Assembly (NCBI GenBank): GCA_050331235.1
Contig: JBHJHA010000002.1
Span: 1 to 45,513, forward strand
From: Leptolyngbyaceae cyanobacterium
Lineage (GTDB): Bacteria > Cyanobacteriota > Cyanobacteriia > Phormidesmidales > Phormidesmidaceae
Length of the DNA stretch: 45,513 bases
Direction of reading: 5' to 3'
A program made the position numbers and the translations under genes. Below are positions 27,253 to 44,186 of the stretch, piece after piece. Every line of letters begins with the position of its first letter. Positions within the stretch are counted from its first letter, which is position 1. The notes under the pieces are model-generated. The model was not told the DNA's origin. It saw only the letters and a list, made by a program, of their open reading frames with translations, and ran no database searches.

Positions 27253-29496
27253 ATGACTTCTGCACGTCTCTTCCCCAAGCTATTGCGGCCCCGGTTAGCC
27301 ACGCTGTTGATGGTCGGCACGCTGATGGCCGCGGCGGCGATCGCGATCGCCTGGTTTGCCGGTAACGGGCTGATTACCACCATCTTTCGCCAGTTGGATC
27401 AGCTCCAGCAGCATCCCCCTGGCTGGGCCATGACGCCCATGATGATTGGCCATTACTTTTGGTTTTGGGCGACGGCGCTGATCTTGGTTGTTTGGCTAAT
27501 TATGCGGGTGTCGCCTACGCCGCAGACTTGGTCTCGTACCGTAGTGGTCGGCATCTTGGGCCTTCTGACGCTGCGGTATCTGAGCTGGCGGCTCACCTCC
27601 ACGCTCAATCTCAGCACACCACTGGATGGGGTCTTTAGCCTGGGCTTATTGGCCCTGGAACTGCTAATTGTGTTGAATGGTTTGGTGCAGCTCTTTTTGC
27701 TGCTGCGCGTGCGCGATCGGCGGCAGGCTGCGGACCAACTGGCCCAAACCGTTACAGCGGGGGCATATCGCCCAACGGTGGACGTCTTGATTCCCACCTA
27801 TGACGAGCCTGCGTTTATCCTGCGGCGCACGGTGATGGGCTGCCAGGCCATGGACTATGACCCCAAAACCGTTTATTTGCTTGATGATACCCGGCGATCG
27901 GAGATTCAAGCCTTGGCGGCTGAGTTGGGGTGTGAATACATCACCCGTCCCGACAATCGCCATGCCAAAGCGGGCAATCTCAACCACGCCATTCCCTTGA
28001 CCCAAGGGGAACTGCTGGTGCTGTTTGATGCCGACTTCGTGCCCACAAAGAATTTCTTGACCCGCACGGTGGGCTTCTTTCAAGATCACCAAGTTGCCCT
28101 CGTTCAAACGCCCCAGAGCTTTTACAATCCTGATCCCATTGCCCGTAACCTGGGCCTCGAAGATGTTCTCACGCCAGAAGAGGAGGTGTTTTATCGACAG
28201 ATCCAGCGGGTGCGCGACGGTGCTGGGGCAGTGGTATGTGCGGGAACCTCTTTTGTCGTGCGTCGCTCGGCGCTGGAGTCAGTGGGCGGGTTTGTGACAG
28301 AGGCGGTGAGCGAAGACTTTTTCACTGGCATTCAGCTCGCGGCGAAAGGGTATCGGCTGATTTACCTCAATGAAAAACTCAGCGCCGGCTTAGCCGCAGA
28401 AAACATTGCGGCCCATGCGCTACAGCGAGTGCGCTGGGAACAGGGCACCCTGCAAGCGTTTTTTATCCAGTCCAATCCGGTGACCATCCCAGGTCTGAAA
28501 CCGCTTCAGCGGTTGGCTTATTTTGAAGGATTGATTCACTGGTTTAGCAGCGTGGCGCGGGTAGGCTTTTTGCTAATGCCCTTGGCCTATGCTTTTCTTG
28601 GCGTCATTCCGCTGCGGGCGACCGAGGCGGAACTGCTGTACTTTTTTCTTCCCTTTTACGTAGTGCAGTTGAGCGTGTTCTCCTGGCTGAATTATCGATC
28701 GCGCTCTGCGCTGCTATCAGATGTTTATTCCTTGGTGTTAGCCTTTCCCCTCGCTCTAACGGTCTTTCAGGTGATGGTGCGCCCCTTTAGCAAAGGCTTT
28801 AAGGTCACGCCCAAAGGAACGGCCAACGATCGCTACCATTTCAACTGGTCCTTGGCCTGGCCCTTGGTCTTGGTCTTTGGACTCACGGCCCTGAGCCTGT
28901 GGATCAATTTGGGCCAGTGTTTGGTGACTATGGCGAACCCAGTCGAGCACCTGCGCGGTATCGGCATTGGCTGGCTGTGGAGCGCCTACAACCTGCTGAT
29001 GTTGGGGTTGGCCCTACTTATCCTGCTAGATGCGCCCCGCCCCAGTCCCTATGAATGGTTCAACGTGCAGCGCATCGCGCGGGTGCAGCGGGCAGGCGAT
29101 CGCGCGGCCCCGCCGGTCTGGGGCACAACGACGATGATCTCGGAAGTCGCGATCGAACTAGAACTCACTAAGGTCGATGCCCTGGCAGGCCAAGACTGGC
29201 ACGGACAGACCGTCGAGATTGCCCTGATGGACGAGTCCTTAACCCTCTCGGCGCGGATTATACAACAGCAGCGGCCAAACGGCTTGCCGAGAATTACCGC
29301 CGAGTTTGAGCCGCTGAGCCAAACCCAACAGCGTCAGTTAGTGGCGCTGCTGTTTTGTCGACCGGGGCAGTGGCAGAGTCGCTGCTCGCCCAATGAGTTG
29401 CAGTCGCTATGGCTCATTCTCAAGTCAGTATTGCGACCCCGATTTTTAACTGATCGCCGACGGCATCCTAAACCTGTTTTGCTTAACCGGGGTTAG
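27253..29496 (+). CDS. Cellulose-synthase-like (BcsA-type) processive GT2 glycosyltransferase with C-terminal PilZ-like region
   Basis: IPTYDE, LLDD, HAKAGNLN, FDADF, QTPQ, SED, QRVRW, FKVTPKG; multiple TM helices. Confidence 0.9.
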   Translation: MTSARLFPKLLRPRLATLLMVGTLMAAAAIAIAWFAGNGLITTIFRQLDQLQQHPPGWAMTPMMIGHYFWFWATALILVVWLIMRVSPTPQTWSRTVVVGILGLLTLRYLSWRLTSTLNLSTPLDGVFSLGLLALELLIVLNGLVQLFLLLRVRDRRQAADQLAQTVTAGAYRPTVDVLIPTYDEPAFILRRTVMGCQAMDYDPKTVYLLDDTRRSEIQALAAELGCEYITRPDNRHAKAGNLNHAIPLTQGELLVLFDADFVPTKNFLTRTVGFFQDHQVALVQTPQSFYNPDPIARNLGLEDVLTPEEEVFYRQIQRVRDGAGAVVCAGTSFVVRRSALESVGGFVTEAVSEDFFTGIQLAAKGYRLIYLNEKLSAGLAAENIAAHALQRVRWEQGTLQAFFIQSNPVTIPGLKPLQRLAYFEGLIHWFSSVARVGFLLMPLAYAFLGVIPLRATEAELLYFFLPFYVVQLSVFSWLNYRSRSALLSDVYSLVLAFPLALTVFQVMVRPFSKGFKVTPKGTANDRYHFNWSLAWPLVLVFGLTALSLWINLGQCLVTMANPVEHLRGIGIGWLWSAYNLLMLGLALLILLDAPRPSPYEWFNVQRIARVQRAGDRAAPPVWGTTTMISEVAIELELTKVDALAGQDWHGQTVEIALMDESLTLSARIIQQQRPNGLPRITAEFEPLSQTQQRQLVALLFCRPGQWQSRCSPNELQSLWLILKSVLRPRFLTDRRRHPKPVLLNRG

Positions 29497-29621
29497 TGGT
29501 AATGGCTTTGGCAAAGCTATGTAACCCATTAATAAATATTGATGCTGAGATTTTGTAGTGTTCCTTAAGAGAATTGGCATTGACGAGTTTTCGACTTAAT
29601 TTTCACAACAGGAGGCCCACG

Positions 29622-29864
29622 ATGGTCATCGTAATTCCGCTTGAGACAACTGAACGGCTGATGCAAACAACTCAGCAGTATCAACTGAGCTTGCCTATTC
29701 CGCTGAGTAGTCGCTGTGCTAGCTACCTATCTCCAGCAGAAATGGACTTGATCTTGGTGGGGCTGCAGCCGTTCAGCCCGCAAAACGATGGGGTTCATCG
29801 CCTAGTCAGCGAGCTACAGCTTTATCGCACCTTGGAAAATCCTGTTGTCCCGTGTGAAGGGTAA
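29622..29864 (+). CDS. Small hypothetical protein
   Basis: AGGAGG RBS before ATG 29622; 80 aa; 8 bp before the next ORF. Confidence 0.6.
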   Translation: MVIVIPLETTERLMQTTQQYQLSLPIPLSSRCASYLSPAEMDLILVGLQPFSPQNDGVHRLVSELQLYRTLENPVVPCEG

Positions 29865-29872
29865 GAGAATCG

Positions 29873-30121
29873 ATGGAACTGAACAAATTTGATCTCAAAG
29901 TTTTGCCCGGATACGAGCCCTGGCTGGAGGCGAAAATTCGTGAGTTGAGTTTGGCGGTTTTAGATACCAATACTTTGACCTGCAACGCCTGTGGCGAAAT
30001 CAAAGGCACTTACATCATTGAGTACGATGGTCAGACCTTTCGCCTCCCTGGGGCAGAGACGCTAGCGTTTTTGGCATTCATCGATGAGCAAGCGCACTTA
30101 TCCCTGCAGGCTCACGCCTAA
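29873..30121 (+). CDS. Small hypothetical protein with CxxC
   Basis: 82 aa, TCNACGE; operon-like spacing. Confidence 0.65.
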   Translation: MELNKFDLKVLPGYEPWLEAKIRELSLAVLDTNTLTCNACGEIKGTYIIEYDGQTFRLPGAETLAFLAFIDEQAHLSLQAHA

Positions 30122-30292
30122 CAGGAGGAGATTGAGCAAGGGCGATCGCCCCAATTCAGAATTGCTGGAACTGTTTACTCAGAATTCGACAGCAGCAGTC
30201 TAAACTTTCGCCGATTTAGGTTTCAGGTCGGTATCACAGCACTAGGTTAGCTGCCTTGGCAACGATGGGTTATAGGACTGGAGAAAACCTAC

Positions 30293-30796
30293 ATGATGAA
30301 ACTAATGTGGATCAAGCACAGTTTGCTGGCCGCTGCGGCTCCGGCGATGGTGTTGGTCAATGCCTTGCTCCCGTTGACGGCTGGGCCCCCCCCCGTCCAG
30401 CTGCAACCGCACTCATAGGCAGAGACCTTGGTCGACTCCGAGCCCAAGACCCTCAACCAGGCCCTAAAGCAGATGCCAATGGTGCTGCCAACGGCTGCCC
30501 AGGCCAGTATCACCTGGCAAGACGGACGCTATGTTTTGGAGTTTTTTCACGCCCTCAATGCGGCGGCGCAGACCCCAGACTTGATGCTGATGTTAGATAT
30601 GGACGCGCAGCCCCAGGGCACCTACGGGCCCAGGCGCGATCGCGCAGTGATGCTGGGACCACTTCACCCCGTGGCTGGTCAGCAAAGGTACCCCATTCCG
30701 GCTGCGGTTGATGTCAATCAGTACCGCTCGGTGGCGATTTGGTGTCCTGAGCTGAATGCGGTGCTGGGATACTTGCCCGTTAGCGTGGATGGATAG
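30293..30796 (+). pseudogene. DM13 domain protein interrupted by an in-frame TAG
   Basis: GGAG RBS, ATG 30293, signal-like MMKLMWIKHSLLAAAAPAMVLV; TAG at 30416-30418; the same frame continues into PDL..LGPL..GQQRYPIP..VDVNQYRSVAIWC (DM13). Confidence 0.7.
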
Positions 30797-31016
30797 CCGG
30801 TGTATCCCGTTTCTGACTTTGCTGCGGCCCGGTTGCGGCCCAATGTGGCTATTCTCCGGCGGGAGAGCTCCCAACCGCTTTCCCCAGGGGCTGATAGCCG
30901 CTTACCAACAGTAGGAGCCAGAGCGCAAATTACCCAGGGCTTACCTGTGGGGAGCGCTGCTCTACCAATGATATCGCTCCGTTGCTTGGGTTGCCGCATT
31001 GAAAGGGACATGGGTA

Positions 31017-32909
31017 ATGTCGATTAAGCGAGTGGGCCGATGGTTAGGGGCGATCGCCCTCGGTTGGTTCCTCATCACTACCGCTGCCAGTGCTCAAGAG
31101 GCCCCCCACCGCCTGCCGGTAGTGCTCGACGGGCGATCGCTGTTTGCTGTGGGCGATTTGGATGACTTCTCCGCGAGCGAACGCGCCGACTTTGTCAATC
31201 ATGTGCTCCAGGCTCAGCTTCGCCAATTGCCGCCAGAAACGCCCATTCAAGTGACCCAACTGAAGCGGGGTGAGCTAATTACCCTGCGGGTGTCGGGGCG
31301 GCACGTATTGACAATTACTGACCAAGATTTAATGGGCAACATTCCCGCTGAGGAGCAGGCGGATCGATGGGCCGATAAGCTCCAGCAAGCTTTGCAACAA
31401 GGGAGAGCGCAGCGGACGCCAGCCTATCGTCGTCGCATCTTAATAGTGGCAGTGGGACTCGCCGTCTTAGGCTTGGGGCTCTACTTTGGCTTGCGTGGGT
31501 TGCGGCGGTGGCTGCGTCGCCATCGGCGTCGACTCTCGCCGGGGGCGCGATTTTGGACGGAAATGGGGATCTATCTGGCCCAGTGGAGCCTGCTGATTGG
31601 CTTTTTGGGATGGGTGTCCCAGGCCTTGCCAGAGCTCAGACATTGGCGCTATCGCGGACTAAACTTTCTCGGCACGACTCTGACCGCTGATGTCGTCACC
31701 CTGAGCGATCACGGCTATTCCATTCTGGAAGTCAGCAAAATTCTGCTCTTGGTGGTGCTGCTGTGGTTGGCCGTTCGGGCCATTACCGGACTCGTGCGCG
31801 CCCGTGTCCTGCAAACCGTGGGGGCAGATCCTACTGCTCAGGATGCGATCGCCCTATTCATCCAGGTTGCGCTGACTGGATTTGGCCTGTTGGTGCTCCT
31901 TCAGGCGTTTGGGGTCGACGTCAGTTCCCTGGCGATTTTGGCCAGTGTCATCGGCGTCGGTATCGGCTTTGGCCTGCAAAACATCGCCAACAATTTCATC
32001 AGCGGCTTGATCATCATGCTAGAGCGTCCTGTGCAGGTGGGAGACTTTGTTAAGCTGGGCGACCTCACGGGGACAGTCGAACGCATCGGCATTCGCAGCA
32101 CTGAAATCAGCACCCTTGATCGCATTACAATTATTGTCCCCAATTCAGAATTTATCGACAGTAAAGTCATCAACTGGAGTCACGGTTTCCCCGTTTCCCG
32201 GCTGCACATTCCCCTAGGGGTGGCCTACAGCTCGCCCATCAAACAGGTGCGCCAAGCGGTGTTCGAAGCGGCCCGGCGACATCCCAAAGTGCTGCGCTAT
32301 CCTAAGCCCCAACTCTGGTTTGAGGGGTTTGGCGACAGTTCGTTAGATTTCAACCTGCTGGTGTGGATTCGAGAACCGCGCCAGCAGTTTCGCATCCGCA
32401 GTGACCTCTACTATTTACTCGAAGCGAATCTGCGGCGTTTTCACATCGAGATTCCCTTTCCCCAGCGCGATCTCCATCTCCGCAGCGATGCTCTCGGTCT
32501 TCGCGACCCGGCATCGGCGCGACCCGCCGACCGCATCACCAGCAGTCCCGCTGTAACAGTTGATGAGGTCCAAACTTTAGAGGAGGCGATCGCCGACTGT
32601 GACATTTTGGATCACCGTGATGAGCCCGCAGAGCTTGAAATTCAAGAACTGGTAGCCCAGATGCGCGGGCCCAATGGCCTCGAAATTCGCGATCGCCGAT
32701 TTGGGCTACAGGTTTATACGCGATGTTTTGTTGGCAGCGATGCCGTGCGCTGGTTTATGCAGCGGCAGCTCGCATCCCGTGAAGAAGCCATCCGGCTGGG
32801 CCAAATTTTGGTCGAGCGAGGGATCATTCATCACGTTATCGATGAACACACCTTCAAAGATGATCATCTGTTTTATCGATTCTTTATCGACGAAGCGATC
32901 GAGCTATAA
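31017..32909 (+). CDS. MscS-family mechanosensitive channel with C-terminal DEP domain
   Basis: GVGIGFGLQNIANNFISG, ERPVQVGD, IGIRST, IIVPNS, IEIPFPQRDLH; DEP region CFVGSDAVRW..REEAIRLGQILVERGIIHHV..FKDDHLFYRF. Confidence 0.93.
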   Translation: MSIKRVGRWLGAIALGWFLITTAASAQEAPHRLPVVLDGRSLFAVGDLDDFSASERADFVNHVLQAQLRQLPPETPIQVTQLKRGELITLRVSGRHVLTITDQDLMGNIPAEEQADRWADKLQQALQQGRAQRTPAYRRRILIVAVGLAVLGLGLYFGLRGLRRWLRRHRRRLSPGARFWTEMGIYLAQWSLLIGFLGWVSQALPELRHWRYRGLNFLGTTLTADVVTLSDHGYSILEVSKILLLVVLLWLAVRAITGLVRARVLQTVGADPTAQDAIALFIQVALTGFGLLVLLQAFGVDVSSLAILASVIGVGIGFGLQNIANNFISGLIIMLERPVQVGDFVKLGDLTGTVERIGIRSTEISTLDRITIIVPNSEFIDSKVINWSHGFPVSRLHIPLGVAYSSPIKQVRQAVFEAARRHPKVLRYPKPQLWFEGFGDSSLDFNLLVWIREPRQQFRIRSDLYYLLEANLRRFHIEIPFPQRDLHLRSDALGLRDPASARPADRITSSPAVTVDEVQTLEEAIADCDILDHRDEPAELEIQELVAQMRGPNGLEIRDRRFGLQVYTRCFVGSDAVRWFMQRQLASREEAIRLGQILVERGIIHHVIDEHTFKDDHLFYRFFIDEAIEL

Positions 32910-33168
32910 CGTTTCTCAATTGAAGGCAATTAGGCCTGACTGGGATGTCTTGCAAAACAACTGATGACTGCTCCTCAAACCTCTTGAAATGAAGAAAGCT
33001 CCAGCCCTAAGACTGGAGCATTGGTGTGCAGATGACTGAACTAAAGGAGCTCAGCACACCAACATCGGATGACAGCAGAGACCGGTAGATAGCTTTGATG
33101 TAGCTGGCAAGCTAGCAACGATGTGCTCTAGCCATCAATTCTGATGCTTTGAGGCGGAGGAAATCTTT

Positions 33169-33199
33169 AAAAAGCAGGCTCTCTAACGAATAGAGAGCC
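33169..33199 (-). terminator. Intrinsic terminator of the precursor peptide gene
   Basis: GGCTCTCTA-acgaa-TAGAGAGCC stem at 33177-33199, followed on the minus strand by TGCTTTTT. Confidence 0.75.
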
Positions 33200-33240
33200 C
33201 GTAGCTTTCGGTGTGACTATTGAGACAAAGCTATATCAGT

Positions 33241-33519
33241 CTAGTCTTTGTCGAGGTTTTCACGACGTAGCTCGTCTAGGCTAGATGCATCCTTATCGAG
33301 GTTCTCACGGCGTAACTGGTCAAAATTGACGCCACCGCTGACGCCCTCGAGCTGATCATCAGAAATTGCATCTTTGTCGAGATTTTCACGACGTAGCTGA
33401 TCGAAATTAACAGCATCTTTGTCGAGATTTTCGCGGCGTAGCTGATCGAAATCAACACCACCACTAACATTCTCTAGCTGCTCATCAGAGACGGATTCCT
33501 TATTAGTGTTCTCAGCCAT
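33241..33519 (-). CDS. Multi-core double-glycine leader precursor peptide (2 leaders, 4 core repeats)
   Basis: SDEQLENVSGG and SDDQLEGVSGG; four LRRENLDKD; AAGGAG RBS 8 nt upstream (33528-33533); own terminator; divergent from a C39 peptidase transporter operon. Confidence 0.9.
   Translation of the reverse strand: MAENTNKESVSDEQLENVSGGVDFDQLRRENLDKDAVNFDQLRRENLDKDAISDDQLEGVSGGVNFDQLRRENLDKDASSLDELRRENLDKD
33244..33456 (-). repeat. Four ~42-45-bp coding repeats in a 2x2 arrangement
   Basis: Units recur 45 bp apart within a cassette and 126 bp apart between cassettes; differences within LRRENLDKD are synonymous. Confidence 0.9.
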
Positions 33520-33784
33520 GTGAATAGCTCCTTAACAATTACACATTCATCCTAGTAATCAGAATTGAAATTGTATGCCTGATAAAGTCGCAATCTAAAA
33601 GAGTTGAAATGTTAAATTCGAACATTTTGGGGGCTGGTTTCAGAAGGTTTTAAGCGGAATTTAATCTGCTTACCAAGTGTTAAGTTTGTTGTCGCTATTT
33701 GCTGGATAATGTTGGGTGTTTTCTTCGGCCATCGGTGTCAATGAAGAAACCCTTTAATATCGGGACGTCGCACCACAATTTCCT

Positions 33785-34831
33785 ATGACAGATACTTTAT
33801 TGCGAGAGTTGAGTAACACCGACCTGGACTGGATGATTACCAGTGGTGAGCGATCGCGGCTGTCGAGTGGAGAGCAGTTGTTAGGTGCGAGCCGCAGTTC
33901 TGACCTTCTATACGTCCTGATTGAAGGGAAGCTGGGCCTCACCGTAATGCCCGAGGGGGCTTCTGCTCAGGCAGATGAACTGCAGGATGAGCTGACTCAG
34001 GGAGAAATTGTCGGCATCGGGGCGCTCTTTGATATGCCAGAAATGAGCAACGTCAATACCCTGGAGCCTTCCATGGTGATGTCGCTCCCTATCGCTAAAA
34101 TTCGCGCCAAGTTGGCCGAAGATGTGGCCTTCGCGGCTCATTTTTACCGCGCGATCGCCATTATGCTGTCGAGTCGACTCCGGCGCATTTTTGAGCAACC
34201 AGGCCGTATTCAGCGTTGGGGTGAGCGCTCCGCTAAAGAAGTCCTGTCTGTGTTTGGAGAGTTGCGTGACAGTGATGTCGACTGGCTGGTGTCCTTTGGC
34301 GAAACGCGGGCGATCGCGGCGGATAAAGTTCTACTGCAGGCCGCTCGGCCGGTGGATGCCCTCTATATCTTGCTGGATGGTCAAATGTCCATCTCTGCTC
34401 CCCAGCAGGGTGAGTTTAACCCCCTTTATCTATGCTTTTCTGGGTTAGAGAGCAGTACCCGCGAGCAAAAGGCTTTTGCCACCATTGCCAAAGGAGGCAT
34501 GCCCGGCATCATCTCATTTCTCGATTTTCGCCCCCTCCCAGTCACCATTCGAGCCACTCGGGAGTCCCTGGTGTTTGCGGTGCCTCGACAAACCCTCGTG
34601 ACTAAGTTGCAGGTCGATGACAGCTTTGCTTCCCGGTTTTATCGCGTGATTACGATTGAAATCCTAGAACTGCTGCAAACGGTCAGCTCGCGATTGGTAC
34701 AGCCCGATCATGCCGCACCGACTCAGGACAACGATCTGCTGGACGAAGAGTTAGACATGGCAGATTTGCGCCAAATGTCAGAAGGAGCCAAGAAATTTAA
34801 CTGGATGTTATCTCAGCTGGGGGTCGCATAA
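33785..34831 (+). CDS. Tandem cNMP-binding domain protein of the type associated with cyanobacterial bacteriocin transport operons (TIGR03896-like)
   Basis: Two homologous halves (ELSNTDLDWM..LYVLIEG..FAAHFYRAI and ELRDSDVDWL..LYILLDG..FASRFYRVI); C-terminal DEELD. Confidence 0.85.
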   Translation: MTDTLLRELSNTDLDWMITSGERSRLSSGEQLLGASRSSDLLYVLIEGKLGLTVMPEGASAQADELQDELTQGEIVGIGALFDMPEMSNVNTLEPSMVMSLPIAKIRAKLAEDVAFAAHFYRAIAIMLSSRLRRIFEQPGRIQRWGERSAKEVLSVFGELRDSDVDWLVSFGETRAIAADKVLLQAARPVDALYILLDGQMSISAPQQGEFNPLYLCFSGLESSTREQKAFATIAKGGMPGIISFLDFRPLPVTIRATRESLVFAVPRQTLVTKLQVDDSFASRFYRVITIEILELLQTVSSRLVQPDHAAPTQDNDLLDEELDMADLRQMSEGAKKFNWMLSQLGVA

Positions 34832-35409
34832 TGGCTGAAAAGACGACTAAAGAACTCTTTCGCAAAGAGTCGCTAGAGCGCCTCTCCTCACCAGAACGGC
34901 TAGATGAGCTGATGACCATTGTCAATTTCAAGACCTGGTTGCCCCTCGGGACCATTAGCATTTTGCTAGGGCTAGGGCTGATTTGGAGCTTGGTCGGTCG
35001 CATTCCGGTGACGACGAGCGGCCGGGGATTGCTGGTGCAGGATGAGCAGTCCGCTGGCCAACTCGCCGCTTTGCTGCATTTTGACAATCGGTATCGAGGG
35101 CAGTTTCAGCCTGGTATGCCGGTGGTGATCACCCCCGATACGCTGTTGATTTACAACGAGCCTGGACTCCAGGCAGAAATCGTAGAGGTGCTGGAGCCCC
35201 CGGCCGTCACCCTTGACCAGGCTCGCCAAGTCGACATGGCTGCGATGGCAGAACCTCAGGATGGTCGGCTAGAGATCTTAGCCCAGTTGTCGCCGATGGA
35301 TGCTGCCATGCCGCCTAATACAGTCGTGGCTGGGGTGGAAATTCAGGGGCGCATCACGCTAGAAGAACGGGCCCCAATCAGGTTTGTGTTTCCCTTTTTA
35401 GCGCGTTAG
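34831..35409 (+). CDS. Shortened NHLP-type secretion / membrane-fusion protein (TIGR03794-like N-terminus)
   Basis: LFRKESLERLSSPERLDELM, TM, GRIPVTTSGRGLL, C-terminal RAPIRFVFP; only 192 aa; TAATG overlap with the upstream gene. Confidence 0.82.
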   Translation: MAEKTTKELFRKESLERLSSPERLDELMTIVNFKTWLPLGTISILLGLGLIWSLVGRIPVTTSGRGLLVQDEQSAGQLAALLHFDNRYRGQFQPGMPVVITPDTLLIYNEPGLQAEIVEVLEPPAVTLDQARQVDMAAMAEPQDGRLEILAQLSPMDAAMPPNTVVAGVEIQGRITLEERAPIRFVFPFLAR

Positions 35410-35525
35410 CGGAAGAGCTCAGGTGACTAGCCATGGGGGAATTTTGCTCAATTTAGAACTCCCGGCTGTGTCTACAAATCGCGATCGCCCGGACTCAACA
35501 CACTATTTTTGACTGATATAAACGC

Positions 35526-37745
35526 ATGCTGATTTTTCCTAAGCCGCTGGCAAAATCTTCTTCTAGCAAACGGGTCAAGACGCCCACCGTGCTGCAAATG
35601 GAGGCAGTGGAGTGTGGCGCTGCCGCGCTGGGTAAAATCCTTGGTTACTATGGCAAAACGGTTCCTTTGGCCGAGCTGCGCCAGACCTGTGGGGTCTCCC
35701 GTGACGGGGTGACGGCGGCCAGCGTACTCAAAGCGGCACGCAAGTACGGCTTAGAGGCATCAGGCTACAAAAAGAGTCTGGAGCGAGTCATGCAGCTCTC
35801 GCCGCCATTTATTGTGTTTTGGCATTTCAACCACTTTTTAGTGGTCGATGGCTTTACTGACAAATGGGTGTACTTAAACGATCCCGCAACGGGGCCCCGC
35901 CGTGTTACCCAGGCGGAGTTTGATGAAGGCTATACGGGCATCGTGCTGGGTTTTCAACCAGGTGAAACCTTTGCACCAGGCGGCAAGCAAGACAAGCTGA
36001 TCGGTACCCTATGGCAACGTCTCAAGCCATCAACCGGAGCGTTGCTGTTAGCTATTATTGCCGGATTCTTCTTAGTGCTACCGGCGCTGACGCTGCCTGC
36101 CCTCAGCCGGATTTTTGTGGATTCTGTCCTGGTGGGGGGGCGTCTGGAGTGGGTGCCCTACCTGCTAGTGGGACTGCTCATCGTGGCGATTGTGCAGGGT
36201 TGGTTAACGGCACTCCAGCGGCGCTATTTGCGATCGCTACGCATCAAGTTGGCTGTAGGCATGACCAGTCGCTTTGTGTGGCACGTGCTGCGGTTGCCTG
36301 TGGGCTTTTACGCCCAGCGCTTTGCTGGAGAAATTGCCAGCCGCATTCGCCTCAATGATGAGGTGGCAGCGGTGCTCTCGGGCCGCCTAACGACAACAGT
36401 GATCAGCTTTGTCCTGGTGATTTTTTACGCCTTGGCAATGGCCCAATATGATCTACTTATGACGGCGATTGTGGTAGGGTTCGCCATTGTCAATGTGGTG
36501 GTCTTGCAGTGGATTGGGCGACAGCGTACCGACGCCAACCTGCGTCTCTCCCAGGAATATGGCAAAGCCGCTGGGGTCGCGATCGCCGGCCTGCAAAACA
36601 TGGAGACCATCAAAGCCTCCGGTTTGGAATCGGACTTCTTCGCTCGCTGGGCGGGATACTACACCAAGTCCATCAATGCCCAGCAGGACCTCGGCCTCAC
36701 GAACCAGCTTTTGGGAATCTTGCCTTCTTTGCTGTCGGCGCTGACCAATCTCGCACTGCTCGTAGTTGGCGGCTGGCGGGTGATTAATGGTGAGCTCAGC
36801 ATCGGCATGCTCGTCGCCTTTCAACTGCTGATGGTGAGCTTCCAGCGTCCAGTCAACCGGCTGGTCAGCTTTGCTAGCATTTTGCAAACCCTACAGGGCA
36901 ACTTGACCCGCCTTGATGATGTTTTGGCCAATGAGGTCGATGGTCAGCTCATCGGTGCTGGTATGGAATCCGAGTCTTCGCCAACCGCCGAGCACTCTCT
37001 ACCAGCGGCAACTCATCGGTTGACGGGAGCCATTACGTTGCGCAATCTGGCCTTTGGCTACCATCCCCTTGAAGCACCGCTCATCGACAACCTGAATCTC
37101 GAGATTCAACCCGGACAGCGGGTTGCGTTTGTCGGCGGCAGCGGTTCCGGTAAGTCGACCCTGGCCAAGCTAATCGCCGGACTTTATCAGCCCCGCTCCG
37201 GTGAAATTTGTTTTGATGGCTGTCCCCGGGAGCGGGTGCCGCGGGCAGTGCTGACTAACTCCATCGCCGTGGTGGAGCAAGACATTCTGATTTTTGAGGG
37301 AACCATTCGCGACAATCTCACCCTGTGGGACACCACGATTCCAGAGGTAGACTTGCGCCGGGCCGCCCAAGACGCGGCGATCGAAGATGTGATCTTGGCT
37401 CAGCCCTATGGCTTCGATGCGCAACTGTTAGAAGGGGCATCCAACCTCAGCGGGGGCCAGCGTCAGCGGCTAGAAATGGCCCGCGCCTTGGTGGGCAATC
37501 CGTCGATTCTCATTCTGGATGAGGCCACCAGCGCCCTCGATACCGAAACGGAGAAAATCATTGACCAAAACTTGCGTCGTCGGGGCTGCACCTGCATCAT
37601 CGTGGCGCACCGCCTGAGCACCATTCGTGACTGCGATGAAATTCTTGTGATGGATCACGGCAAAGTTGTGCAGCGCGGCACCCATGAACAACTCTGGGAG
37701 GCTGGAGGCCACTATGCGCGACTGATCAAAAGTGAATCTGGTTGA
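35526..37745 (+). CDS. NHLP/NHLM bacteriocin ABC transporter, C39 peptidase/permease/ATPase (TIGR03796-like)
   Basis: TPTVLQMEAVECGAAAL (catalytic Cys), CGVSRDG, FNHFLV, NDPA; GGSGSGKST; LSGGQRQR; LDEATSALD. Confidence 0.95.
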   Translation: MLIFPKPLAKSSSSKRVKTPTVLQMEAVECGAAALGKILGYYGKTVPLAELRQTCGVSRDGVTAASVLKAARKYGLEASGYKKSLERVMQLSPPFIVFWHFNHFLVVDGFTDKWVYLNDPATGPRRVTQAEFDEGYTGIVLGFQPGETFAPGGKQDKLIGTLWQRLKPSTGALLLAIIAGFFLVLPALTLPALSRIFVDSVLVGGRLEWVPYLLVGLLIVAIVQGWLTALQRRYLRSLRIKLAVGMTSRFVWHVLRLPVGFYAQRFAGEIASRIRLNDEVAAVLSGRLTTTVISFVLVIFYALAMAQYDLLMTAIVVGFAIVNVVVLQWIGRQRTDANLRLSQEYGKAAGVAIAGLQNMETIKASGLESDFFARWAGYYTKSINAQQDLGLTNQLLGILPSLLSALTNLALLVVGGWRVINGELSIGMLVAFQLLMVSFQRPVNRLVSFASILQTLQGNLTRLDDVLANEVDGQLIGAGMESESSPTAEHSLPAATHRLTGAITLRNLAFGYHPLEAPLIDNLNLEIQPGQRVAFVGGSGSGKSTLAKLIAGLYQPRSGEICFDGCPRERVPRAVLTNSIAVVEQDILIFEGTIRDNLTLWDTTIPEVDLRRAAQDAAIEDVILAQPYGFDAQLLEGASNLSGGQRQRLEMARALVGNPSILILDEATSALDTETEKIIDQNLRRRGCTCIIVAHRLSTIRDCDEILVMDHGKVVQRGTHEQLWEAGGHYARLIKSESG

Positions 37746-37894
37746 AATATGGATTATGACAGCACTCGGATGCTCATTTGAGCTGACTGATCTGGGCTTG
37801 TTATATCCCATTCAGCGATGGTCTATTCCTAAAATGCACCTGACGCAGCGCTTCGCTATTTGCTTGTTCCTGTCCTTACCTACCCTTACGACCC

Positions 37895-40786
37895 ATGATT
37901 GCTACGCTTTCTCAACCTCGGACGATTACAGCTAATGAGCCGCTGCTGCTGACCGATCCGTCTAAGCTCTGGCACGTCAAATCGGGCCAGCTGGCGGTGT
38001 TTGTCACTGCTTTTGTCGATGAACAACCGGTCGGCGAGCGGTGGTATCTCTTCACGGTAGAGGCGGGAGAAGCGTTGTTCAGCGCCACTATCTGTCCGGT
38101 GACACACCTTGGGTTGCTAGCGATCGCGATCGAACCGGCCGAAATCCTAGATGTGCCTTTGAGCGAAACCGATGAATCGGCCCTGCCGAGCAATCGCCTC
38201 AAGCAGTTAGCCGATCCATGGATCCATCACCTCAGCCAAATCGACGGCTTTCCGAGAACGGCACAGACGGGAGTCGTGCCGGATATTCACTACATCTCGC
38301 TGCTACCGGGGCAAGTTTGCCGCGCCCCAGCAGGCACTGTTGCTTGGGTGCGGATGCAACAGGGCAAGGCCTCTTGGATGGGGAATCCCTCCTTTCCCCT
38401 CGCCTCTGAATTGGGCTGTTTTCCGTTAGGAGACGGCATGTTTATGCAGGCACAAGACCATATTGAGTTTTTCATTCGACCGACTCAAGAGGTCAAAAAC
38501 CGCAAAATTATCATTCGCGGGATTAAACAACTCCACAATTACTTTTTCAGTACCGTTGAGCAGATCCAATCGCGGCAGCAGCGGCTAAGGCTACGCCGGT
38601 TTCAACAGCGGCAGCAGCTCAATCAGGAGGTCACCCAAAAAGTCGTTCGCACTTTATCTGGTGTTTTAGAGCAAGATGAGCGCTTTCAGGAAATTGATTC
38701 TCCCCTATTGGCCGCTGCCGGGGCCGTGGGTAAATCCCTCGGCGTGAGGATCGAACCGCCCGCCACATCAGAAAACACGACCCGAAATAAGGAGCCATTA
38801 GAGGCGATCGCCCGCGCCTCTCAACTGCGGCTGCGGCGGGTACTCTTGCGTGGCCAGTGGTGGCAAAAAGACAGTGGTCCGATTGTGGCCTATACCCGTG
38901 AAGGTCACCATCCAGTGGCGCTGTTACCCACGCGCGGCAGCCAGTATGAGCTATTTGATCCCGTTGCGGCCCAGGCTGATCCGACTGCGGTCAGAGTGCC
39001 CATTACGGCTGCTATTGCCAATTCCCTAGAGCCCGTCGCCTTTGTCTTTTATCGACCATTGCCGACCACTGAGCTCAATGCCCTTTCCCTGCTCAAGTTT
39101 GCCTTTCGCGGTCAGGGACGAGATTGGCTGATGATTTTGCTCACAGGCGTCGCGGCTACGCTCATTGGCATGCTGGTGCCCCAGGCCGCGGCTGCGCTGG
39201 TGGATACGGTGGTGCCGTATGGCGATCGCCCACTGCTCGTTCAGATCGGGCTGGGACTGCTGGCGGCGGCGCTTGGAGCCTCCAGTTTTCGCTTGGCCCA
39301 GGCGATCGCCACCATGCGGGTCGAAACCGCCTCGGATGCTCACTTACAGGCTGCAGTTTGGGATCGGTTACTAAAGCTCCGCACCTCGTTTTACCGCGAC
39401 TACGCCACGGGGGACCTCAACTCCCGGGTCTCCAGCATCACCGCCATTCGCCGCAAGCTGAGCGGGTCCGCTCTTCAAGGCTTGTTTGCCGGTGCCTTCT
39501 CACTGTTAAACCTCGGACTGTTGTTTTACTACAGTCCGCCTCTGGCCCTAATTGCGCTACTGGTTGCCCTCGTTATTCTGGTGGTGACAGTGGCCTCCGG
39601 TTTAGTGCTTGTACGCAAATATCGCCCCTTGTTAGAAATCCAGGGCAAGCTCTACGGCCTTGTGGTGCAGCTTATCAACGGGGTCTCAAAACTCCGCATT
39701 GCCGGTGCCGAGGAACGGGCCTTTGCCGCTTGGGGCCAGCGCTATGGTCAGCAGCTGCGGCTCACCCTCAGCACCCAACAGCTCGAAGACGCTGTCGATG
39801 TGTTTAACACCGTGCTCCCCATTTTTACGACGCTGATTTTGTTTTGGTTGGCCAGTCAGTTTGTTGATAACACCTCTGGCGATGGCCTCTCAACAGGGAC
39901 CTTTCTCGCTTTTTCCGTCGCCTTCGGCACGTTTATCTCAGGGGCCACTAGTCTCAGTAATACGTTGGTAGAACTGCTCGATGTTGTGCCTCTCTGGCAG
40001 CGGGCCCAGCCAATTCTCCGAGCTGAGCCTGAGGTTAACCTCACCAAATCGGACCCTGGTCAGCTTTCCGGAGCGCTTAAAGCTGAGCGGGTGAGTTTTC
40101 GTTACAAGCCGAACGGTCCCCTCATCCTCGACGATGTCAGTTTTGAAGCTAAGCCCGGCGAGTTTATTGCACTGGTTGGTCCCTCGGGGTCAGGTAAATC
40201 TACCGCAATGCGCCTATTGCTAGGATTTGATAGCCCCGAGTCCGGCACCATTTACTTCGATGGTCAAGATCTTTCGGGCTTGGATGTCGTTGCTGTACGC
40301 CGACAGTTTGGGGTAGTTCTGCAAACGAGTCGCCTCAGCGCCGGCTCTATTTTTGAAAACTTGGCCGGTGGTGCCCTCATTTCCTTAGACGATGCCTGGG
40401 ATGCGGCTGAAAAAGCGGGACTTGCGGATGACCTGCGAGCTATGCCGATGCAGATGCATACCGTTGTCAGTGAAGGGGGGACTAACCTCTCCGGCGGCCA
40501 GCGCCAGCGGCTGCTCATTGCTCGGGCGCTAGCGGTGCATCCGAAAATCATGCTCATGGATGAAGCCACCAGTGCCCTGGATAATCGCACTCAAGCGATC
40601 GTGACGGAAAGCTTGGATCGACTCAATGTGACCCGTGTGGTGATTGCCCATCGCCTAAGTACCATTCGTAATGCTGATCGCATATATGTTGTGGAAGCTG
40701 GGCGAGTCGTACAGCAGGGCAACTTTGATGAGCTGGCGGCTCAGGGTGGCTTATTTGGTCAGCTCATCAAGCGACAAATGGCTTGA
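37895..40786 (+). CDS. NHLP/NHLM bacteriocin ABC transporter partner, permease/ATPase (TIGR03797-like)
   Basis: N-terminal cNMP-like region; AIARASQLRLRRVLLRGQWWQKDSGP; GPSGSGKST; LSGGQRQR; MDEATSALDNRTQ. Confidence 0.93.
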   Translation: MIATLSQPRTITANEPLLLTDPSKLWHVKSGQLAVFVTAFVDEQPVGERWYLFTVEAGEALFSATICPVTHLGLLAIAIEPAEILDVPLSETDESALPSNRLKQLADPWIHHLSQIDGFPRTAQTGVVPDIHYISLLPGQVCRAPAGTVAWVRMQQGKASWMGNPSFPLASELGCFPLGDGMFMQAQDHIEFFIRPTQEVKNRKIIIRGIKQLHNYFFSTVEQIQSRQQRLRLRRFQQRQQLNQEVTQKVVRTLSGVLEQDERFQEIDSPLLAAAGAVGKSLGVRIEPPATSENTTRNKEPLEAIARASQLRLRRVLLRGQWWQKDSGPIVAYTREGHHPVALLPTRGSQYELFDPVAAQADPTAVRVPITAAIANSLEPVAFVFYRPLPTTELNALSLLKFAFRGQGRDWLMILLTGVAATLIGMLVPQAAAALVDTVVPYGDRPLLVQIGLGLLAAALGASSFRLAQAIATMRVETASDAHLQAAVWDRLLKLRTSFYRDYATGDLNSRVSSITAIRRKLSGSALQGLFAGAFSLLNLGLLFYYSPPLALIALLVALVILVVTVASGLVLVRKYRPLLEIQGKLYGLVVQLINGVSKLRIAGAEERAFAAWGQRYGQQLRLTLSTQQLEDAVDVFNTVLPIFTTLILFWLASQFVDNTSGDGLSTGTFLAFSVAFGTFISGATSLSNTLVELLDVVPLWQRAQPILRAEPEVNLTKSDPGQLSGALKAERVSFRYKPNGPLILDDVSFEAKPGEFIALVGPSGSGKSTAMRLLLGFDSPESGTIYFDGQDLSGLDVVAVRRQFGVVLQTSRLSAGSIFENLAGGALISLDDAWDAAEKAGLADDLRAMPMQMHTVVSEGGTNLSGGQRQRLLIARALAVHPKIMLMDEATSALDNRTQAIVTESLDRLNVTRVVIAHRLSTIRNADRIYVVEAGRVVQQGNFDELAAQGGLFGQLIKRQMA

Positions 40787-40805
40787 TAATTCTGGCGTTA
40801 GCCAT

Positions 40806-41747
40806 TTAAGGTGAGACGGATGATGAAGGTTGCGGTGTCTGCCAGTGGCAACTGTTGGGCGTCAACGTGATCAAATCTTCAATATTGCGCTGCATCGTTT
40901 CGCAGATGGCATCTAGGGGCAAATCATTGGGATCATGGCCAAAGGGATTTTCAATTTCAATGCCGATTTCCTCGATGCCAAATACGGCAAAACTGATCAG
41001 TCCCACGGCGATCGCCGTCCACCAACCTAACAGCCCCACCATTTGAAAGGGCAGCGCCAGACAGTACAGCAGCAATAGTTGCTTGAGATGGATCACATAA
41101 GCTAGCGGAATTGGCGTTTTGAGAATGCGCTCGCAGCCCCCCAAAACGTCAACTAGGGTATCCACTTGGGCCAACATTGAAGAGAGTTGGTAAGCATTCA
41201 AGTGCCCTCGGTCAAAGCAAGACTGCAAATAGTTGGCAATCCAAAACGCAATTTCCAGCGGTGGATGGTTCATGGTTTGGAGTTTGGCTAGTTCCGTCGC
41301 GGTCACCAACTCAGCCAAGTCTTCGCCTAAGGGTTCGCAGCGCAGATTTAGCTTGGTGGCTTGGGCAAACGCTACCAGCAACCGCAAGTGATGAATCTTA
41401 TCAGCGCGATCGCCTGGGGCATCCTCATGCACTGCAACCCAGAGCTGCCGAGCCAAATTCCGACTCGTATTGACCAGCGTTCCCCAAAGTTTCCGCCCTT
41501 CCCAAAACCGCTCGTAAGCTGTGTTTGTGCGAAACACCAGCAACAGGCCTAACACAATACTGGGCACAATATTGCCCAATGCTCCGAAAGCTACCGGCGC
41601 TCCCCACTGATACAGGCTCGCAATCACAAGCCCAAACCCTGAGCACAGGAGTGATCTAGGCAAAACAACGGGAACCACCGAACCCCGCCATTGAAAAATC
41701 ATCCGAAACCAATGTCGAGATCGAGGTAGATCTATATTGGGCGTCAT
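40806..41747 (-). CDS. Bestrophin family ion channel (YneE-like)
   Basis: LLLVFRTNTAYERFWEGRKLWG, CERILKTPIP, EIENPFGHDPNDLPLD; start at ATG 41747. Confidence 0.93.
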   Translation of the reverse strand: MTPNIDLPRSRHWFRMIFQWRGSVVPVVLPRSLLCSGFGLVIASLYQWGAPVAFGALGNIVPSIVLGLLLVFRTNTAYERFWEGRKLWGTLVNTSRNLARQLWVAVHEDAPGDRADKIHHLRLLVAFAQATKLNLRCEPLGEDLAELVTATELAKLQTMNHPPLEIAFWIANYLQSCFDRGHLNAYQLSSMLAQVDTLVDVLGGCERILKTPIPLAYVIHLKQLLLLYCLALPFQMVGLLGWWTAIAVGLISFAVFGIEEIGIEIENPFGHDPNDLPLDAICETMQRNIEDLITLTPNSCHWQTPQPSSSVSP

Positions 41748-41949
41748 GATGGATGACCTCACCTCTGCAACCCCTGGCTCACTCTTGCCACACTATGGCC
41801 ATGCCAGAGTCAGCAGTCAGCTTTGCCGAGCGAAACCCTAACCGTAGAGATTGATATCTCGCTACAATTCTATAGTACAAGGTCACTCCTATCGGGTCTA
41901 TGCCGGCTGAGACAGCATGATGACTCGCCCAAACAGACGAAACTGATCA

Positions 41950-43074
41950 TCAGGTATTTAGCGCATATACCTGACCGTTAAAGAGTATCCGAGTAATCCC
42001 TTTAGCCTGTAAATATTCCTGTGTTTTGTTCAGGATTAGGCTATTTGGCACCTTGATAATGCGCTGGTTACGCCTAGCAAACCGCCGCGCGATCTTATGA
42101 TTTTCAAATACTGGTAGGGTCCTCGCCTGCTCTTCTCCCGGAGGGATCATACCCAATTCGGAAAAGTCCTTGAGCGGACAGGTGATCAGTTCTGACAGCC
42201 TATCTACAACTAAGTAGCAAGGCTTGGTCAGAGAAAAGCGCTCAAATGACAAAATCGATAGCTCTGCTTCGCTGGGTGGAGCCGGTTCGGCAACTTCTTC
42301 CTCGTCGTCATCTCCATCCCAGCTGTCTTCGTCCCAATCATCATCAGTATCATCGTTGTCAAAATCATCGTCGCCGAGACCATCAGGCACCCATGCCGTG
42401 ACTTCATCATCCTCGTCAGATTCGTCGGATTCATCTGACAGTTCTTCAGCAATCTCAGGGCTCGCTCCGATGTCTGAAGGGGGGAGCGACCGACCATTAG
42501 AGGATGCAGCGATCGCAGTCTCTTCTTTCCCAGAGGACGCGGCAAGATCGGCTGCTTCATCCGGTTCAACAGCTGTTGAGCGGCGGCGAGATCGGCGAGT
42601 GACCAGTTTTTTAGACGCAGTCTCTGTAGGCTGCATTTCCGATTCCGTTGCCGCTTTACTGTCGCTAGATGCCGTATCGCTATCCGATGACGTTACCTCA
42701 GTCTCACTTGATACTGCTGTGTCAGATTGATCCTCATCGCTCGAGGGGACCTCTATCGTCGCTGCTACTGTGTCAGACTGCGTCTCGTCGCTAGCTGCTT
42801 CTTGATGATTTGAAGGCAATGATGTCGGTTCCGTTGCCTCGATTTGCTCAAACGCTGCACTACTTGCTAAGGGAAAACTGCCGCGTTCGCCACTCCGCTT
42901 CCACTTCATAAGCTGCGTATATTCTGCCTCAGGCAGCATCTGCTTCAGCACACGACTCACCGTGCTACTACTGATGCCAAATTTATTGGCCAACGTAGAC
43001 GTGGTTTCTCCCGGCTGGCAGTAAATGCTGGTTATTTGTCGCCTGTCGGAGTCTGAAAGTTTGCGAGGTGCCAT
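41950..43074 (-). CDS. Cyanobacterial HTH protein with long acidic linker
   Basis: ETTSTLANKFGISSSTVSRVLK helix-turn-helix; D/E-rich tract; globular C-terminus (CYLVVDR..ELIT.PLKDF..TLPVF). Confidence 0.8.
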   Translation of the reverse strand: MAPRKLSDSDRRQITSIYCQPGETTSTLANKFGISSSTVSRVLKQMLPEAEYTQLMKWKRSGERGSFPLASSAAFEQIEATEPTSLPSNHQEAASDETQSDTVAATIEVPSSDEDQSDTAVSSETEVTSSDSDTASSDSKAATESEMQPTETASKKLVTRRSRRRSTAVEPDEAADLAASSGKEETAIAASSNGRSLPPSDIGASPEIAEELSDESDESDEDDEVTAWVPDGLGDDDFDNDDTDDDWDEDSWDGDDDEEEVAEPAPPSEAELSILSFERFSLTKPCYLVVDRLSELITCPLKDFSELGMIPPGEEQARTLPVFENHKIARRFARRNQRIIKVPNSLILNKTQEYLQAKGITRILFNGQVYALNT

Positions 43075-43219
43075 TCGGGAAGGTTGATGTCTACGGGGTC
43101 GCTCTTATCTTACTGCTATGCAGCCGTTACCGAGGCAATCTGTTATTGGAGTCAGCCATCTCTACTAGGGCGTGTCATCAGTTAGTTAAGCTGAAGATAG
43201 CAGACAGAGACGGAGAGAG

Positions 43220-43570
43220 AGGGGACGTTACGGGCTCCGCGATGACCAATGGGAGCGGATTAAGGACTTTTTGCCAGGGCGAGAAGGCCATGTGGGTGGC
43301 ACAGCTAGAGACAATCGAGTGTTCATCGAAGCTGTGCTGTATCGCTACCGTTCAGAGATTCCCTGGCGAGACTTGCCTGAACGCTTTGGGGACTTTCGAG
43401 TCGTACAGACCCGCTTTAGCCGATGGGCTAAGAGTGGAGTCTGGCAGCAAATCTTCGAGAAGCTCTCGGAGGCTTCCGACAACGAATACGCCATAATCGA
43501 TGCCACCATCGTAAGAGCCCATCAGCATAGTGCGGGTGCGGCTCAAAAAGGGGCCATCAGCAGGTCGTAG
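43220..43570 (+). CDS. IS5 transposase orfA (expected start codon reads AGG)
   Basis: RYGLRDDQWERI..DNRVFIEAVLY..PWRDLPERFG..RFSRW..IIDATIVRAHQHSAG. Confidence 0.75.
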   Translation, partial: RGRYGLRDDQWERIKDFLPGREGHVGGTARDNRVFIEAVLYRYRSEIPWRDLPERFGDFRVVQTRFSRWAKSGVWQQIFEKLSEASDNEYAIIDATIVRAHQHSAGAAQKGAISRS

Positions 43571-43970
43571 CCGAGGGGGATTGAGCACCAAGCTCAATGC
43601 CACCTGTGACGCGTTGGGCAATCCAACCGGGTTCTACCTGACACCTGGACAAGTCCACGACCTCGTCGGGGCAGATGTTTTGCTCAGTAACCTTGAAGCC
43701 CAGGCACTGCTAGCCGACAAAGCCTACGACGCCGATGAGCGAGTTCGTCAACTTTTGGCTCAAAAGGGATGTCAGGCGGTGATCCCATCAAAGTCTAGTC
43801 GCAAAGCGCCTTACCCTTACGATCTACATCTCTACAAAGCACGACATTTGATTGAGAACTTTTTCGCCAAGCTCAAGCAGTATCGAGCCATCGCCACGCG
43901 ATATGACAAAACTGACCTTAACTTCCTGAGTGCAATCTATCTGGCTGCCTCTGTCATCTGGCTCAACTGA
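43530..43970 (+). CDS. IS5 transposase orfB (DDE C-terminal part)
   Basis: GRSRGGLSTKL, ADKAYD, YKARHLIENFFAKLKQYRAIATRYDK. Confidence 0.88.
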   Translation: MRVRLKKGPSAGRSRGGLSTKLNATCDALGNPTGFYLTPGQVHDLVGADVLLSNLEAQALLADKAYDADERVRQLLAQKGCQAVIPSKSSRKAPYPYDLHLYKARHLIENFFAKLKQYRAIATRYDKTDLNFLSAIYLAASVIWLN

Positions 43971-44186
43971 TGACACACCCTAGTCAACCGGCGATCGCCT
44001 TATTCACGACTCGCTACCAGTTACATCTCACCATCCGATGCAGTAGTAGCGTCAAGACACAGACGCCTCATTAAGTCATCGTTCCCTTATGAACTCTAAC
44101 GGAGCTGACCAATCATTAAATATAAGAGATAAGCTTATGGATCAACGATAACGCTTGCCTAAGCTCTCACAGCTACCCGATTAAAT

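Follow-up and report, generated by a model that had tools for sequence, protein, structure and literature searches.

The locus described here raises the question of why a small cyanobacterial gene should encode the same nine residues four times, with codons that differ from copy to copy and residues that do not. It lies in the window, the whole stretch of 45,513 nucleotides that was analyzed, which comes from a Leptolyngbyaceae cyanobacterium. Here, an open reading frame at 33241-33519 on the minus strand (92 aa in translation) contains the sequence LRRENLDKD in four copies:

33415-33441, minus strand: LRRENLDKD copy 1, residues 27-35
33370-33396, minus strand: LRRENLDKD copy 2, residues 42-50
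33289-33315, minus strand: LRRENLDKD copy 3, residues 69-77
33244-33270, minus strand: LRRENLDKD copy 4, residues 84-92

A previous reading of this DNA, made from the sequence only, had listed the codons of the four copies, and its strings match the gene letter for letter. Eight of the nine core codons are variable, all variants are synonymous, and the constant codon is the ctc of the second leucine. The span given for the repeats in that sequence-only reading, 33244-33456, corresponds to residues 22-92, all downstream of the first double glycine. Within the 27-nt core, eight nucleotide columns vary among the four copies; when eight random single substitutions were placed on this core, not one of 200,000 draws was entirely synonymous. 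By the Nei-Gojobori method, pN over the nine codons is 0 in all six pairs of copies and pS ranges from 0.33 to 1.06, with repeat 3 saturated relative to repeats 1, 2, and 4. Most of the within-gene codon variation stems from repeat 3. Repeats 1 and 2 of the window genome have 85% of their same-residue codons in common, against a between-genome baseline of about 50%, and adjacent repeats seem to be partly homogenized.

Architecture of the precursor

The gene, its parts, and the signals around it are as follows:

33241..33519, minus strand: precursor gene, 92 codons plus a TAG stop, with 212 homologues
33457..33519, minus strand: N-terminal double-glycine leader, residues 1-21, with Val at -12, Leu at -7, Val at -4, and GG; recognized by TIGR01847 and by conservation
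33412..33456, minus strand: repeat 1, residues 22-36
33367..33411, minus strand: repeat 2, residues 37-51
33331..33366, minus strand: internal leader-like linker, residues 52-63, with Ile at -12, Leu at -7, Val at -4, and GG; predicted second C39 site after Gly63
33286..33330, minus strand: repeat 3, residues 64-78
33244..33285, minus strand: repeat 4, residues 79-92, its first three residues diverged
33528..33533, minus strand: ribosome-binding site AAGGAG, 8 nt upstream of the ATG, read from the sequence
33570..33599, minus strand: promoter-like site, a consensus match only
33175..33201, minus strand: terminator-like hairpin with a T run, about 40 nt 3ʹ of the stop

Translated from the minus strand, the product is MAENTNKESVSDEQLENVSGGVDFDQLRRENLDKDAVNFDQLRRENLDKDAISDDQLEGVSGGVNFDQLRRENLDKDASSLDELRRENLDKD. 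It is organized as two tandem modules, each made up of a leader-like stretch ending in GG and two 15-residue repeats. The true leader (residues 1-21) has the C-terminal end V-S-G-G, and residues 52-63, ISDDQLEGVSGG, echo the final twelve residues of a leader. A double glycine with hydrophobic residues at -4, -7, and -12 is present twice, first as V10, L15, V18, G20, and G21 and again as I52, L57, V60, G62, and G63. The TIGR01847 model (bacteriocin_sig) scores 20.5 bits on the whole precursor, above its cut-off of 15.7, and 15.1 bits, just under it, on the isolated 21-residue leader. Each repeat unit contains three spaced hydrophobic residues (F, L, L) together with A and V, and acidic residues occupy four to five of its 15 positions; the unit is without Gly or Pro, glycine being confined to the linkers. 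The net charge of residues 22-51, calculated from the sequence, is -3. In repeat 4, the last Asp directly abuts the stop codon.

That the open reading frame is a real gene, as had been proposed, is evident by the AAGGAG ribosome-binding site, the promoter-like site, the terminator-like hairpin, the 212 homologues, and the synonymous-only variation. With its signals on both sides, the precursor gene looks like a transcription unit of its own.

Selection across orthologues

Selection was followed in a codon alignment of fourteen two-module genes, comprising that of the window and 13 others and spanning five genera; a three-module gene (locus L031) was left out. Across these orthologues, pN/pS is 0.07, 0.05, 0.06, and 0.20 for repeats 1 to 4, 0.23 for leader 1 (residues 11-21), 0.33 for the internal linker, and 0.63 for the first ten residues. 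Synonymous sites are saturated in the repeats and both leader-like segments, as pS there reaches 0.76-0.83. From L27 to K34, the same residues are found in all 14 genes, yet each is encoded by two to six codons. Among the loci compared, the exact sequence LRRENLDKD occurs 137 times in 125 distinct 27-nt strings.

These figures uphold the view of the sequence-only reading that the exact sequence is under purifying selection, with low pN/pS in every repeat at a pS of about 0.8. Freely varying cores, which that reading had named as the outcome that would speak against it, were not seen among the 14 two-module orthologues. The duplication is also old, as it had supposed: module 1 (residues 11-50) and module 2 (residues 53-92) stand at a pS of 0.79 and a pN of 0.095, and the two-module layout is kept in other genomes across five genera. 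Codon sharing is 0.50-0.57 between orthologous repeats and 0.44-0.51 between non-orthologous ones. It is somewhat higher between adjacent repeats within a genome, reaching 0.66 for repeats 1 and 2, which hints at occasional local conversion between neighbors. The fixed receptor or self-assembly that the sequence-only reading also proposed would be consistent with these data; the internal GG leader, the repeat pair as the natural unit, and the Sec-exported forms, all taken up below, were no part of that reading.

The export cassette and its neighborhood

A four-gene export cassette is divergent from the precursor gene and starts at 33785 on the plus strand:

33785..34831, plus strand: bacteriocin-type transport-associated protein with two cyclic-nucleotide-binding domains (TIGR03896, 256.8 bits, cut-off 161; PF00027)
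34831..35409, plus strand: short HlyD-like adaptor, 192 aa (TIGR03794, 66.5 bits, below the cut-off of 156)
35526..37745, plus strand: C39-peptidase/permease/ATPase exporter, or PCAT (TIGR03796, 1105 bits; PF03412, 119 bits; structure 6mpz)
37895..40786, plus strand: second ABC permease/ATPase subunit, no peptidase domain (TIGR03797, 999 bits)

The peptidase domain of the exporter is a close relative of LahT150, matching its structure (6mpz) with an E value of 3.6e-43. Gln24, Cys30, His103, and Asp119 of the exporter align with Gln21, Cys27, His101, and Asp117 of LahT150, which passages of PMC6363468 describe as the oxyanion candidate (Gln) and the catalytic triad (Cys, His, and Asp). By this alignment, the catalytic triad of the exporter is intact. 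The adaptor matches the 421-position TIGR03794 model in two short stretches. Its short length is kept in four relatives that are 57-80% identical to it over the full length, so it is a minimal form that has been conserved, not a damaged gene; a truncated HlyD pseudogene was ruled out on the same ground. The second ABC subunit has a 267-aa N-terminal extension before its TIGR03797 match (37895-38704, plus strand), and a Pfam search with residues 1-270 returned no match even at E values up to 1.

The linkage of precursor and cassette was compared in up to 20 kb around ten two-module genes in relatives. In four of these (L048, L049, L053, and L054), the cassette lies beside the precursor; in L055, only a 54-residue fragment of the first cassette gene does. 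The DNA examined in the other five relatives contains no cassette, and three of those contigs end early. The window genome itself has one such cassette, and its three other repeat genes are scattered among unrelated neighbors.

No RiPP-modifying enzyme was found among the ORFs scanned at 27253-45362, which extends about 6 kb upstream and 12 kb downstream. The other neighbors scanned encode an MscS-DEP channel, a cellulose-synthase-like protein, a bestrophin, an HTH protein, and an aminotransferase. The region is flanked by the cellulose-synthase-like glycosyltransferase (27253-29496, plus strand; TIGR03030, 480 bits, below the cut-off) and the bacterial bestrophin channel (40806-41762, minus strand). 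The MscS-type channel, which has a C-terminal DEP domain (30999-32909, plus strand), lies beside the precursor and is also adjacent in L055. In two other genomes, an MscL gene lies beside Sec-type repeat genes (L037, 303-731; L060, 394-822), the one in L060 being the 16-repeat Sec-type gene. This proximity of mechanosensitive channels, seen in two unrelated settings, could be due to chance or could reflect a link to periplasmic osmotic physiology.

The internal double-glycine site

Whether the precursor is cut once or twice depends on the linker between the modules. The linker keeps S53, D54, L57, G62, and G63 without exception in all 14 orthologues and admits just I, V, or L at position 52 and V or I at position 60, while the positions in between vary. 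The true leader shows a matching pattern in V10, S11, D12, L15, V18, G20, and G21. When residues 45-66 were searched alone, the leader part of the NF038167 model aligned over model positions 11-25 with 14.4 bits, compared with 15.5 bits for the true leader.

The needs of the related peptidase LahT150 are set out in section 8 of PMC6363468, where the last 13 leader residues are enough for correct cleavage, a charged residue at -4 or -7 abolishes or strongly reduces it, and most changes at -12 impair it. PMC6363468 also describes the residues at -4, -7, and -12 as occupying hydrophobic pockets and as required. By comparison, the internal stretch has every feature on which this close homologue of the neighboring peptidase is known to depend. 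The retention of -12, -7, -4, and GG in the orthologous linkers suggests that the precursor is cut after both Gly21 and Gly63 to release two-repeat peptides, which we consider probable.

Alternatively, two adjacent single-module genes might have fused and left the internal GG as a relic, in which case cleavage after Gly21 only would yield one 71-residue peptide with four repeats. In L030 and L032, single-module and two-module genes do stand in tandem, which makes a fusion origin plausible, and the linker, looser than the repeats at a pN/pS of 0.33, is under less constraint than any other part but the extreme N-terminus. However, the residues at -12, -7, -4, -2, and -1 needed by the close peptidase homologue are kept in 14 of 14 genes as the positions between them vary; a fossil at saturated synonymous divergence should have lost them, and the three-module form of L031 also keeps the pattern. 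On this evidence, a relic cut at one site is unlikely.

Relatives and distribution

A word-indexed search returned 212 homologues of 50-161 aa. When the best 120 of these 212 were sorted by pattern, 78 proved to have a GG leader and 32 a Sec-type signal peptide; the remaining 10 are ambiguous, most of them mis-called starts. The GG forms consist of one module (51-63 aa, two repeats), two modules, or three. The three-module form (L031 1501-1905, minus strand; 135 aa) has three GG stretches and six repeats, so the module of a leader and two repeats can be iterated further. The Sec-signal forms have 2 to 16 repeats, arranged in pairs with 7-8-residue linkers of the type V-x-E-[VI]-Q-V-K-G. Since the single-module GG forms have two repeats and the Sec forms have pairs, the pair appears to be the unit and the module appears to act outside the cytoplasm.

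Sec-signal proteins of roughly 260-310 residues consist purely of 12-16 repeat copies (L060 1169-2125, plus strand; L058 1841-2857, minus strand), and in them conserved V-x-E-[VIL]-Q-V-K-G linkers lie between repeat pairs. These linkers might be processing sites or strand-forming spacers. In L034, L036, L058, and L059, orthologous Sec-type repeat genes adjoin a DUF7662-HTH (MqsA-like) gene in four of four cases, and a TsaD gene lies on the opposite side in three; two ORFs scanned there in L059 gave no match. In L011, an ORF with a telomere-resolvase (ResT/TelK) catalytic domain (1211-2365, plus strand; E 8e-19) adjoins a Sec-type repeat gene on a short contig, which may be a linear plasmid or prophage. 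Across 15 loci, 33 of the 43 ORFs beside Sec-type genes were scanned, and no recurring protease or receptor was found among them.

The window genome (G000) has four genes with the repeat, totaling ten repeats. Besides the two-module precursor, these are:

contig C34, 36224-36367, minus strand: single-module GG gene, far from any export cassette
contig C28, 13070-13171, minus strand: Sec-signal repeat gene, far from any export cassette
contig C37, 32384-32491, minus strand: Sec-signal repeat gene, far from any export cassette

The consensus unit, V-D-F-D-Q-L-R-R-E-N-L-D-K-D-A, is conserved at 71-100% per position in 256 units, figures that are biased upward by the permissive pattern with which the units were extracted. 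In an even sample of the phylum, three of 401 genomes matched (G000 included), all in the window's own family, and the sampled genomes of other families gave no match. The window's family is the only one in its order, where the repeat was detected in 93 of 173 genomes and in 62 of the 116 that are at least 90% complete; the matches cover 15 of 19 genera and number up to 41 per genome. A filter-free search of 1.84 billion representatives, with a profile made from the Sec-type alignment, found only 95 proteins at E <= 0.001. Of the long matches, the four inspected (P0141, P0145, P0149, and P0151) are unrelated low-complexity charged repeats. A search for longer homologues gave three matches, which proved to be extra repeats or mis-called starts, with no fused domain. 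Some relatives have a precomputed assignment to Pfam family PF28158, which means that the repeat family has in part been catalogued before.

From precursor to peptide

The reading that best accounts for the locus as a whole, to which we assign a probability of roughly 60%, is that the gene encodes an unmodified, exported precursor of two modules that would be cut at both GG sites to release repeat pairs made for a fixed partner. The precursor would consist of two tandem modules, each with a GG leader of 12-21 residues and two acidic units of 15 residues, and would remain unmodified. The C39 peptidase domain of the adjacent exporter would recognize the hydrophobic residues at -12, -7, and -4 and cut after the GG at Gly21 and Gly63, and the exporter would then move the pieces out of the cell. 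Product 1 would comprise residues 22-63 (42 aa), with the spent internal leader retained, and product 2 would comprise residues 64-92 (29 aa). The working unit would be the repeat pair, for which an amphipathic, helical form with a net negative charge is predicted. The pair would act outside the cytoplasm by binding an unchanging partner, whether a receptor, a cation, or copies of itself, and such a partner would explain why the residues are frozen as the codons drift. Both the export and the extracellular action on a fixed partner are what sequence and gene context suggest.

Structure prediction offers a low-confidence view of the repeat pair. An AF2 model of the window protein, built on 16 aligned rows, has helices over the repeats with a pLDDT of 54.5 and a pTM of 0.18; that of a 151-aa Sec-type mature protein, built on five rows, has a pLDDT of 33.6, likewise of low confidence. 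The two models disagree, one having a long helix per pair and the other a short helix per repeat. A prediction of self-association with three copies of residues 22-51, in a run without controls, scored 0.06 against a mark of 0.42, a result that weighs neither way on binding. The best Protein Atlas matches scored 0.82-0.83, short of the level that carries meaning.

What the repeat pair would do

The most credible alternative, though one we consider less probable than the reading given above, is that the repeat is a bulk extracellular or periplasmic material, an acidic and possibly helical unit that would bind divalent cations or self-associate in sheath, matrix, or periplasm. Large gene families, Sec-type polyproteins of up to 16 repeats, and the four to five acidic residues in every 15 are consistent with such a role. 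Additionally, the 15-residue period of the hydrophobic residues, read from the sequence, would line them up as one stripe along a helix, and there is a weak match, at 19.4 bits and below the cut-off of 28.4, to PF05662, the pentadecad YadA stalk model. Passages of PMC4997328 describe small GG-secreted cyanobacterial proteins that enable biofilm development. The locus is contained in no RNA run and in only three DNA runs, all from one study and labeled stromatolite metagenome, in keeping with such a role; these runs may, however, be the source sample of the assembly itself. Against a cation-binding material, comparison by eye recognized no known calcium-binding pattern in the repeat. An EF-hand-like calcium loop was dropped after the repeat was compared by eye with the PROSITE pattern.

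In heterocyst patterning, the different precursors PatS, HetN, and PatX contain one common RGSGR motif. By analogy, the repeat precursor could be of the polyprotein type, with repeats that would be cut out singly or in pairs to serve as a diffusible signal (a pheromone or morphogen) for a conserved receptor. Frozen residues with drifting codons, several copies per precursor, and one motif across precursor types and export routes would fit this role, and the cyclic-nucleotide-binding partners of the exporter suggest regulated release. However, the gene has neither a receptor nor a two-component pair linked to it, and the neighbors of the Sec-type genes are varied. Moreover, up to 41 matches in a genome and proteins of 16 repeats fit a bulk material better, and a signal common to 15 genera would hold no species information. 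We regard a signal as improbable.

Last, a classical bacteriocin, that is, a class II antimicrobial that kills competitors as the name "CTB family bacteriocin" implies, is very improbable. The GG leader, the adjoining PCAT exporter and HlyD-like adaptor, the near-threshold NF038167 match (31.8 against 32 bits), and the induction of CTB family bacteriocin genes by phosphate starvation in Nodularia reported in passages of PMC9846622 point toward it. Against it, the core has an acidic, hydrophilic makeup, with a net charge of -3 over residues 22-51, and is nearly invariant over five genera instead of diversifying (pN/pS 0.05-0.07 in repeats 1-3). Sec signals also direct the repeat, in 2-16 copies, into the periplasm of the producer itself, the CTB model is matched by the leader only, and no candidate immunity gene was recognized among the larger neighboring ORFs scanned. 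The repeat lacks the diversifying, usually cationic or hydrophobic core by which a bacteriocin is told, and of all the readings the bacteriocin label agrees least with a unit that is acidic and invariant and that also reaches the producer's periplasm.

Novelty and significance

A literature search with the motif strings found no paper (supplements and subscription journals lay outside its scope). Phrases for a second, internal, or multiple double-glycine motif likewise appeared in no paper found, and "tandem leader" appeared only in papers on ants and viruses. The terms "repeat," "tandem," and "two double-glycine" are absent from Wang et al. 2011 (PMC3140520). Tentatively, and with more doubt than confidence, the precursor could be the first polyprotein-type PCAT substrate in which every cargo unit has its own leader and which would be cut iteratively at two or three GG sites, with a cargo that is letter-perfect across the clade and a single family served by two independent export routes (PCAT and Sec). 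If it is such a polyprotein, possible roles include a shared signal or a cation-binding building block of the mat or sheath.

Cyanobacterial GG-leader peptides are routinely labeled bacteriocins and are expected to have variable cores. The repeat family departs from this in that its cargo is frozen across genera, is multiplied by repeating the leader itself, and is also exported as the same unit by Sec. Cleavage at the internal GG sites, if it occurs, would mean that a PCAT is able to process a polyprotein, with a bearing on how these transporters engage their substrates, and would supply a natural template for producing peptides in many copies with LahT-type proteases. The 125 DNA spellings of one nonapeptide mark a strong constraint in filamentous, mat-forming cyanobacteria, and the repeat looks more like a peptide with a fixed partner than like a fast-evolving antibiotic.

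Comparison with known systems

Among named families, the closest in sequence is the CTB family bacteriocin model NF038167, which also describes a cyanobacterial GG-leader peptide. The precursor aligns with the leader part of this model (positions 10-36 of 72) and leaves the cargo part unmatched; at 31.8 bits, it falls 0.2 short of the curated 32-bit cut-off. Single-module relatives score 19.9-24.5 bits, and in a six-frame NF038167 search of the window genome none of five matches exceeded the cut-off. The pentapeptide MXKDX repeat proteins (TIGR02953) are likewise small Sec-signal repeat proteins rich in K and D, and some sources give the MXKDX name to Sec-type members of the repeat family. However, the period here is 15 residues, not 5, the motif differs, and the scores of the window protein (18.5 bits) and of a Sec-type member (P0011, 30.4 bits) lie below the cut-off of 41.

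Cyanobactin PatE is a multi-core RiPP precursor. Microviridin AMdnA is one as well, with three cores, as reported in passages of PMC5934393. Like the repeat precursor, AMdnA and PatE carry several product copies per cyanobacterial precursor. Unlike it, they have one leader, dedicated modifying enzymes, and other proteases, whereas every module here comes with a GG recognition stretch of its own and nothing points to modification. EbfG1-4/PteB of Synechococcus elongatus, as presented in parts of PMC4997328, provide an example of small cyanobacterial GG-secretion proteins with a non-antibiotic role; the EbfG proteins are not tandem repeats, and the likeness is of role, not of sequence.

The cassette resembles the NHLP/Nif11-type systems in its second ABC subunit, HlyD-like adaptor, and cyclic-nucleotide-binding accessory protein; the three-gene transport cassette TIGR03794/03796/03797 of those systems is described in sections of Haft et al. 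2010 (PMC2887384). It differs in that the leader of its substrate is short and is not an NHLP or Nif11 domain, and in that the adaptor is under half the length of the TIGR03794 model (192 vs. 421). The likeness to PCAT/AMS substrates lies in the GG leader with hydrophobic residues at -4, -7, and -12 and in the adjoining C39-ABC exporter with an intact triad, and by these sequence features the precursor passes as a PCAT substrate. It differs in that it has a second leader-like GG site inside the precursor (a third in one relative), is accompanied by no modifying enzyme, and carries as its cargo a conserved repeat instead of a variable core.
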